Assembly: GCF_003334815.1 (NCBI RefSeq)
Contig: NZ_QOWO01000037.1
Source of the DNA: Escherichia coli
GTDB taxonomy: Bacteria; Pseudomonadota; Gammaproteobacteria; Enterobacterales; Enterobacteriaceae
DNA: 37,002 nucleotides
Direction: 5' to 3' (one strand)
Positions 1-770 of this stretch are shown piece by piece. Under the pieces are notes generated by a model. The model saw only the letters and a list, made by a program, of their open reading frames with translations. It had not been told where the DNA came from and did not search any database. Each line of letters begins with the position of its first letter. Positions within the stretch are counted from its first letter, which is position 1. The position numbers and the translations under genes are program-made.

Positions 1-116
1 AATCGGTGGAGCTGCATGACAAAGTCATCGGGCATTATCTGAACATAAAACACTATCAATAAGTTGGAGTCATTACCCTGCATCGTAAGGGTAGTGGTTT
101 CGGCCCCGGAGGATGG

Positions 117-770
117 GTGCTTTGCCGCGCGCAATTCGATGCGTTATGCGGTGGATTATGCGGCAATGAACGACCGCAGGTTGTGGCTCAAGGGATTCGC
201 CTCGGGCGTTTCACGGTTAAACAGCCACAGCGTTATTGTTTGCTGCGTATTACGCCGCCTGCGCATCCTCAACCGCTTGCAGCTGCATGGATGCAACGCG
301 CGGAGGAAACCGGGCTTTTCGGGCCACTGGCGATGGCGGCAAGCGATCCGCTGCCCGCTGAATTACGCCAGTTTCGTCACTGTTTTCAGGCCGCGCTCAA
401 TGGCGTTAAGACCGACTGGCGGCACTGGCTGGGTAAAGGACCCGGATTAACGCCAAGTCATGATGATGCGCTGAGCGGAATGCTGCTGGCGGCCTGGTAT
501 TATGGCGCTTTAGATGCGCGCTCTGGTCGCCAGTTTTTTGCCTGTTCCGACAATCTTCAACTCGTTACCACAGCGGTGAGCGTCAGTTATTTACGCTACG
601 CCGCGCAAGGATATTTCGCCTCGCCACTCCTGCACTTTGTTCATGCTCTGAGTTGCCCGAAACGTACCGCTGTTGCGATTGATTCGCTGCTGGCGCTGGG
701 GCACACGTCAGGGGCAGATACGCTGCTGGGGTTCTGGCTTGGTCAACAATTATTACAAGGAACACCATGA
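117..770 (+). CDS. ylbF: DUF2877-family protein (YlbF/AllH-like); start uncertain
   Basis: Frame-3 ORF with typical E. coli codon usage (CTG, GCG, CCG, CGC rich); stop TGA 768-770 overlaps the ATG of the downstream carbamate kinase-like gene (ATGA). Position upstream of ybcF/purK matches K-12 synteny. In-frame TAA at 60-62 limits the N-terminus; first candidate start is GTG 117 with a close-spaced GGAGGA. Confidence 0.6.

Follow-up and report, generated by a model that had tools for sequence, protein, structure and literature searches.

IS1 inserted between codons 41 and 42 of allH splits the gene and very probably inactivates it in a small Escherichia coli lineage

The allH (ylbF) gene at the start of the stretch studied here is interrupted by a copy of IS1, which lies between codons 41 and 42, is accompanied by an 8-bp duplication of its target (CTGCATCG) and splits the gene into two parts, very probably with loss of function. 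The stretch, hereafter the window, is 37,002 nucleotides of E. coli DNA and begins within the insertion sequence; the identity of the element, both of its junctions and the duplication were observed directly, in the window and on a second contig of a draft assembly. We propose that IS1 transposed into allH at this point, duplicating the 8 bp, and that the window starts inside the element because the assembler would have broken the short-read draft contig at a repeated sequence. The features concerned are listed in Table 1.

Table 1. Features at the start of the window
Feature	Position	Strand	Basis or remark
Last 77 bases of the 768-bp IS1, transposase sense strand	1-77	+	Identical to the complete IS1 on contig 4 (GCA_965212685.1) and to annotated IS1B
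C-terminus of IS1 transposase InsB/InsAB′, 19 codons and TAA stop (60-62)	3-62	+	
IS1 right terminal inverted repeat ATCAATAAGTTGGAGTCATTACC	55-77	+	
128-aa frame-1 ORF	64-450	+	Overlaps allH out of frame
8-bp target-site duplication CTGCATCG, right-hand copy (allH nt 124-131)	78-85	+	Both junction sequences
allH (ylbF) 3′ remnant, codons 42-271 and stop	78-770	+	Alignment to the intact locus
217-aa ORF from internal GTG (codon V55), CAM9369537.1, 'DUF2877 domain-containing protein'	117-770	+	Public annotation
C-to-T change giving R57C	123	+	Sole difference from the closest complete relative, 52F4, within the remnant
ybcF/allK, carbamate kinase, last gene of the allFGHK operon	767-1660	+	ATG overlaps the allH stop (ATGA)

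The window begins with the 3′ end of IS1

All three forward frames close within the first 62 nt of the window (TGA at 17-19 in frame 2, TGA at 40-42 in frame 1 and TAA at 60-62 in frame 3), after which frame 3 is open from 63 to a stop at 768-770, with GTG 117 as its earliest canonical start and a GGAGGA motif at 108-113, spaced 3 nt from the GTG. These stops, the first start, the closely placed GGAGGA and an overlapping frame-1 ORF had all been noted in the original prediction, which gave a length of ~270 aa for YlbF/AllH and proposed an N-terminally truncated allele. The reference is indeed 816 bp and 271 aa, both in complete genomes and in PMC11326118 (Table 5), and is reduced here to a remnant of 230 codons that can give at most 217 aa from GTG 117, which bears out the truncation. 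Reference proteins of ~217 aa, or a ylbE stop at 60-62, would be ordinary explanations for the same pattern; the reference proteins measure 271 aa, and ylbE terminates 10 nt upstream of the ylbF ATG. Taken alone the stops are only mildly unusual, with 9.2% of 62-nt windows across the 37 kb closing in three frames, and the pattern is informative only because bases 1-77 are not ylbF.

When positions 1-800 were compared with 5,426 complete E. coli genomes using megablast, just 75-800 aligned to ylbF-ybcF, and positions 1 to ~100 returned ~75,000 matches in E. coli genomes, where the annotation is IS1 family transposase. A three-way alignment showed that 1-77 is the 3′ end of IS1, ending ...GGAGTCATTACC, and that from 78 the sequence is ylbF from codon 42, with CTG CAT CGT (L42 H43 R44) as the first codons of the remnant. 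Translation of 3-62 gives SVELHDKVIGHYLNIKHYQ*, which is also how the reconstructed 232-aa InsAB′ ends, and the contig's own gene call at this fragment carries PF03400 (DDE_Tnp_IS1). The TAA at 60-62 ends the IS1 transposase frame and is therefore not a mutated ylbF codon. Of the two causes that had been suggested for the truncation, a different upstream sequence is thus the one that stands and a nonsense change at 60-62 falls away, and the question of whether 60-62 is a sense codon in reference ylbF genes does not apply to a transposase stop. The same TAA shares its frame with the allH remnant, with five sense codons between them, such that read-through of the stop would fuse both proteins; this common frame is most likely a coincidence. 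GTG 117 and its GGAGGA are internal codons (G-P-G-G-W-V) found in all intact alleles examined. Judged by its position in the sequence, we take the frame-1 ORF to be spurious, since it overlaps the conserved allH frame and its 5′ end falls in the terminal repeat of IS1.

The left junction lies on a second contig and carries the same 8-bp duplication

An exact-sequence match to the 217-aa ORF was found in the draft E. coli assembly GCA_965212685.1, on the 37,085-bp contig CBDBYT010000045.1. This contig begins 118 nt from the right end of IS1, and these bases equal the final 118 nt of an IS1 that contig 4 of this assembly carries. For target duplications of 0 and of 7-14 bp in turn, we translated codons 1-41 of allH together with the duplicated bases through into the left end of IS1, and looked up each predicted fusion product as an exact sequence. 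[quoted passage not shown] A duplication of 9 bp is the commoner size for IS1, and the 52-aa product predicted for it is not on record; those for 0, 10-12 and 14 bp were likewise absent from the exact-sequence lookup. The 7-bp prediction was matched by coincidence, its 44-aa product being the same as that of an unrelated TAG-45 allele, and the matches to the 13-bp prediction were partial proteins at contig ends.

With the junction marked by a slash, the left-hand sequence on contig 4 reads ...AACGCTGCATCG/GGTGATGC, also given as ...AACGCTGCATCG/GGTGATGCTGCC, and the right-hand sequence in the window reads ...CATTACC/CTGCATCGTAAG. CTGCATCG is present at both allH junctions, each on a different contig, and the same 8-bp duplication on both sides is therefore the signature of one IS1 transposition. 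The element on contig 4 (10132-10899, 768 bp) has GGTGATGCTGCCAACTTACTGAT as its left end and contains a 91-aa insA, an A6C run at nt 307 and a 232-aa InsAB′, with Pfam matches to Zn_ribbon_InsA, HTH_Tnp_IS1 and DDE_Tnp_IS1; the insA and InsAB′ frames appear intact. The sequence features of IS1 examined here are thus all present, namely the terminal repeat, the 768-bp length, InsA with InsAB′ made by −1 frameshift, and a short (8-9 bp) duplication.

Both junction contigs were also found in Logan assemblies of SRR3823859, each in 7 samples and with the R57C change, and the IS1-allH junction was found in none of the 5,426 complete E. coli genomes. With both junctions in the Logan assemblies, the insertion is genuine and belongs to a small lineage.

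The allH remnant lies in an otherwise ordinary chromosomal context

Across its 693 nt the allH remnant has one difference from strain 52F4, which carries an intact 271-aa ylbF, and two from strain 300709, and outside the remnant the window matches ordinary E. coli chromosomes such as that of 52F4 at 100% identity over 25 kb. On this ground a Shigella origin, which the presence of IS1 had suggested, was rejected. allFGH is co-transcribed with allK (ybcF) (PMC11326118); in the window the remnant adjoins allK, and on contig 4 the stub comes after allF-allG. A promoter scan found no sigma-70-like promoter in window 1-900, and therefore nothing supports an IS1/target hybrid promoter driving the remnant.

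The other end of the contig stops in the IS4-family element IS421 beside hokE/sokE, and both contig ends are thus breaks at insertion sequences. This hokE/sokE type I toxin-antitoxin locus occupies window 36606-37002 (sok RNA at 36606-36761, hokE ORF at ~36754-36906, then the IS421 end), and its junction with IS421 is common to 1,873 complete genomes. Further in, tRNA-Arg(TCT) (argU) lies at 15067-15143 with ordinary chromosomal ORFs directly after it, on the way to nfrAB and cusCFBA. Beside argU the window shows no apparent prophage; in K-12 this is the site of DLP12.

The missing N-terminus is conserved and predicted to form a β domain

The Pfam AllH domain (PF11392) spans residues 158-263 of the intact protein (E = 2e-29) and is also recorded for the 217-aa remnant. 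As it covers just these residues, domain scans miss the N-terminal truncation and the remnant looks complete. A HMMER scan of 1.84 billion representatives returned full-length homologs of 33-41% identity whose alignments start at residues 2-14. Across an alignment of 33 sequences residues N31 and P51 do not vary and conservation of G53 is at least 90%, the N-terminal block is kept in 32/32 aligned full-length homologs, and the IS1 insertion point falls inside a conserved LLTLHRxGxGLSPMGW motif. The full-length architecture of ~270 aa (N-terminal β domain, AINL block and LLTLHRxGxGLSPMGW motif) is therefore incomplete in the window, where codons 1-41 are absent.

An AlphaFold2 model built from the same alignment (mean pLDDT 94, pTM 0.92) predicts residues 1-56 to form six confident β strands, in which the junction would cut strand 39-44 and a start at V55 would remove all six. 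No solved relative of AllH was found by PDB sequence search or by Foldseek against the PDB, and no NCBIfam model for AllH was found. Initiation at GTG 117 drops 54 residues, and the expectation that conserved N-terminal residues would be missing from the 217-aa product is confirmed by the absence of N31, P51 and G53. With the whole Pfam AllH domain and an in-frame GTG near GGAGGA, a truncated protein could be made from the remnant. None-the-less, because the lost N-terminus is conserved and predicted to be a six-strand β domain, the 217-aa remnant in the annotation most likely has no function, and the disrupted allH copy is best called a pseudogene.

Contig 4 joins the allH stub to the lsr region

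On contig 4 the allH stub and IS1 are followed not by the allH remnant but by the 5′ end of an autotransporter gene and then lsrK, lsrR and lsrACDBFG. The two flanks of this IS1 differ (CTGCATCG on the left and CTGAATTT on the right), with the flank in the window matching the left one, and the unequal 8-mers indicate that, as assembled, the contig-4 element is a hybrid copy. We think that the assembler probably made this join in error, across identical IS1 copies; in the simplest view, two identical copies would lie in allH and in the autotransporter gene, and the assembler would have linked the wrong exits. Of the 15 genomes that both match lists share, 13 have ylbF and the lsrK flank on one strand, separated by ~1.0-1.5 Mb. 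The ylbF-lsrK join thus keeps the normal order and orientation, which makes it a junction of the deletion type. A model with an inversion at the join was rejected, as the lsr side is collinear with ylbF and not inverted. The IS1-lsr junction is in no complete genome, the apparent full-coverage matches being stitched from separate pieces that reflect other IS1 insertions nearby.

The autotransporter gene beside lsrK is of the ECSE_1600/ESPR type and is cut by IS1 after ~45 codons (contig 4, 10900-11040, − strand). Many complete genomes have IS1 at other nearby positions in this gene, which looks like an IS1 hot spot. In two genomes, Z1323CEC0003 and Z1323CEC0011 (NZ_CP148493.1 and NZ_CP148440.1), the ylbF and lsrK flanks are on opposite strands, indicating large inversions.

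Alternative explanations

The path through contig 4 could instead be genuine, with IS1 entering allH and a subsequent IS1-mediated rearrangement parting the halves, such that the 5′ half now lies beside lsr and the segment of 0.55-1.6 Mb that starts with the window lies elsewhere. The continuous order from allG through the stub, the complete IS1 and the autotransporter 5′ end to the lsr genes is what such an event would leave, as are the unequal 8-mers, and the inversions in Z1323CEC0003 and Z1323CEC0011 show that rearrangements between both loci exist. We none-the-less consider it unlikely, since the join is collinear and of the deletion type, with both flanks on the same strand in most of the genomes compared, and lpxH, cysS and folD would be lost in a real deletion but are all in GCA_965212685.1, on the contig that matches the window; keeping them would need an extra megabase translocation. 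Furthermore, short-read assemblers often make wrong joins through identical IS copies, and the window's contig stops at IS elements on both ends. Improbable in our estimation is the wider proposal that the contig-4 path is real, as a megabase-scale IS1 rearrangement moving the purK-to-ter segment, or that the repeated, independent loss of allH, by this IS1 insertion and by a codon-45 TAG allele, stems from selection against the oxamate branch of allantoin catabolism in some gut E. coli lineages and not from neutral decay. With a mis-join as the preferred reading of contig 4, the two allH halves are presumably still adjacent on the chromosome.

Other readings concern the junction itself and the remnant. 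It is scarcely credible that a single assembly produced a chimeric IS1-allH junction and that allH is intact in the organism: the contig does start within a repeat and the junction is absent from complete genomes, but both junctions were recovered, their shared 8-bp duplication had been predicted in advance of its detection, and the independent Logan assemblies (7 samples) contain both junctions together with R57C. Truncation of ylbF by a point nonsense change at 60-62, which the TAA in the remnant's frame and the genuine codon-45 TAG allele of other E. coli might bring to mind, can in effect be dismissed, as bases 1-77 have no ylbF homology and are identical to IS1, whose transposase frame this TAA terminates, and the alignment refutes it. 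We also think it very unlikely that the 217-aa protein is a functional AllH isoform through which oxamic transcarbamylase is kept. Although it keeps the whole PF11392 region, is near-identical to intact alleles (one substitution), has GGAGGA before its GTG and could receive transcription from IS1, it would be without the 54 residues that include N31, P51, G53 and the six N-terminal β strands of the model, a block that 32/32 aligned full-length homologs keep. Its Shine-Dalgarno spacing is 3 nt, and the motif consists of ordinary internal codons that are in intact genes too. The sole change, R57C, is non-synonymous and fits relaxed constraint, although a single substitution proves nothing.

Expected effect on anaerobic allantoin use

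Disruption of allH by IS1 therefore remains our reading. AllF, AllG and AllH form oxamic transcarbamylase, of which AllH is one of three required subunits, and allH deletion lowers oxamate from 17.7 to 1.2 mM and diverts flux to oxalate in a complementable manner (PMC11326118). In the insertion strain the 5′ stub would provide 44 native codons running into the IS1 left end to give a 50-aa product, and the 230-codon 3′ remnant would be without its native start, promoter or ribosome-binding site. [quoted passage not shown]

IS1 classically exerts polarity on downstream genes. Given this polarity and the ATGA overlap of the allH stop and allK start, through which translational coupling would be lost, allK is probably under-expressed as well.

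These points matter chiefly for annotation and phenotype prediction. Public annotation presents two ordinary proteins, a 'Putative carboxylase' (50 aa, contig 4 10001-10153) and a 'DUF2877 domain-containing protein' (217 aa), and not one IS-disrupted pseudogene. If the loss of function is true, this lineage should be without oxamic transcarbamylase, and its anaerobic use of allantoin would no longer reach the carbamoyl-phosphate/ATP-yielding end.

Comparison with known IS1 insertions and allH alleles

This is a textbook case of insertional disruption by IS1, of a kind already known, and it brings nothing new on IS1 or AllH. As in other disruptions by IS1A/IS1B-type elements in E. coli and Shigella, the element is 768 bp with canonical repeats, insA, the A6C run and a 232-aa InsAB′; it is flanked by an 8-bp direct duplication, is present in many copies per genome and breaks short-read assemblies. 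The contig-4 IS1 differs from the IS1B comparison copy at 11 of 768 positions. In contrast to known IS1 insertions, this allH site is occupied in 0/5,426 complete E. coli genomes.

The allH deletion mutant (PMC11326118) involves the same gene in the same allFGHK context, and a similar loss of oxamate and diversion to oxalate would be expected here. The present allele differs in being a natural IS insertion, which leaves 85% of the coding sequence and may be polar on allK.

A parallel close in position is the natural codon-45 TAG allele of allH in other E. coli lineages (e.g. GCA_040040525.1), which inactivates the gene within 3 nt of the IS1 site and for which gene callers give a 44-aa stub and the same 217-aa GTG-start remnant. 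In our collection the TAG is at 3133-3135 of locus L008, is also present in L009-L013, and is indexed in 67 blocks. Unlike the IS1 insertion, it is a point mutation in a contiguous gene with no mobile element, and it arose independently on a different allele background (protein P0015 versus P0001, which differ at several residues).
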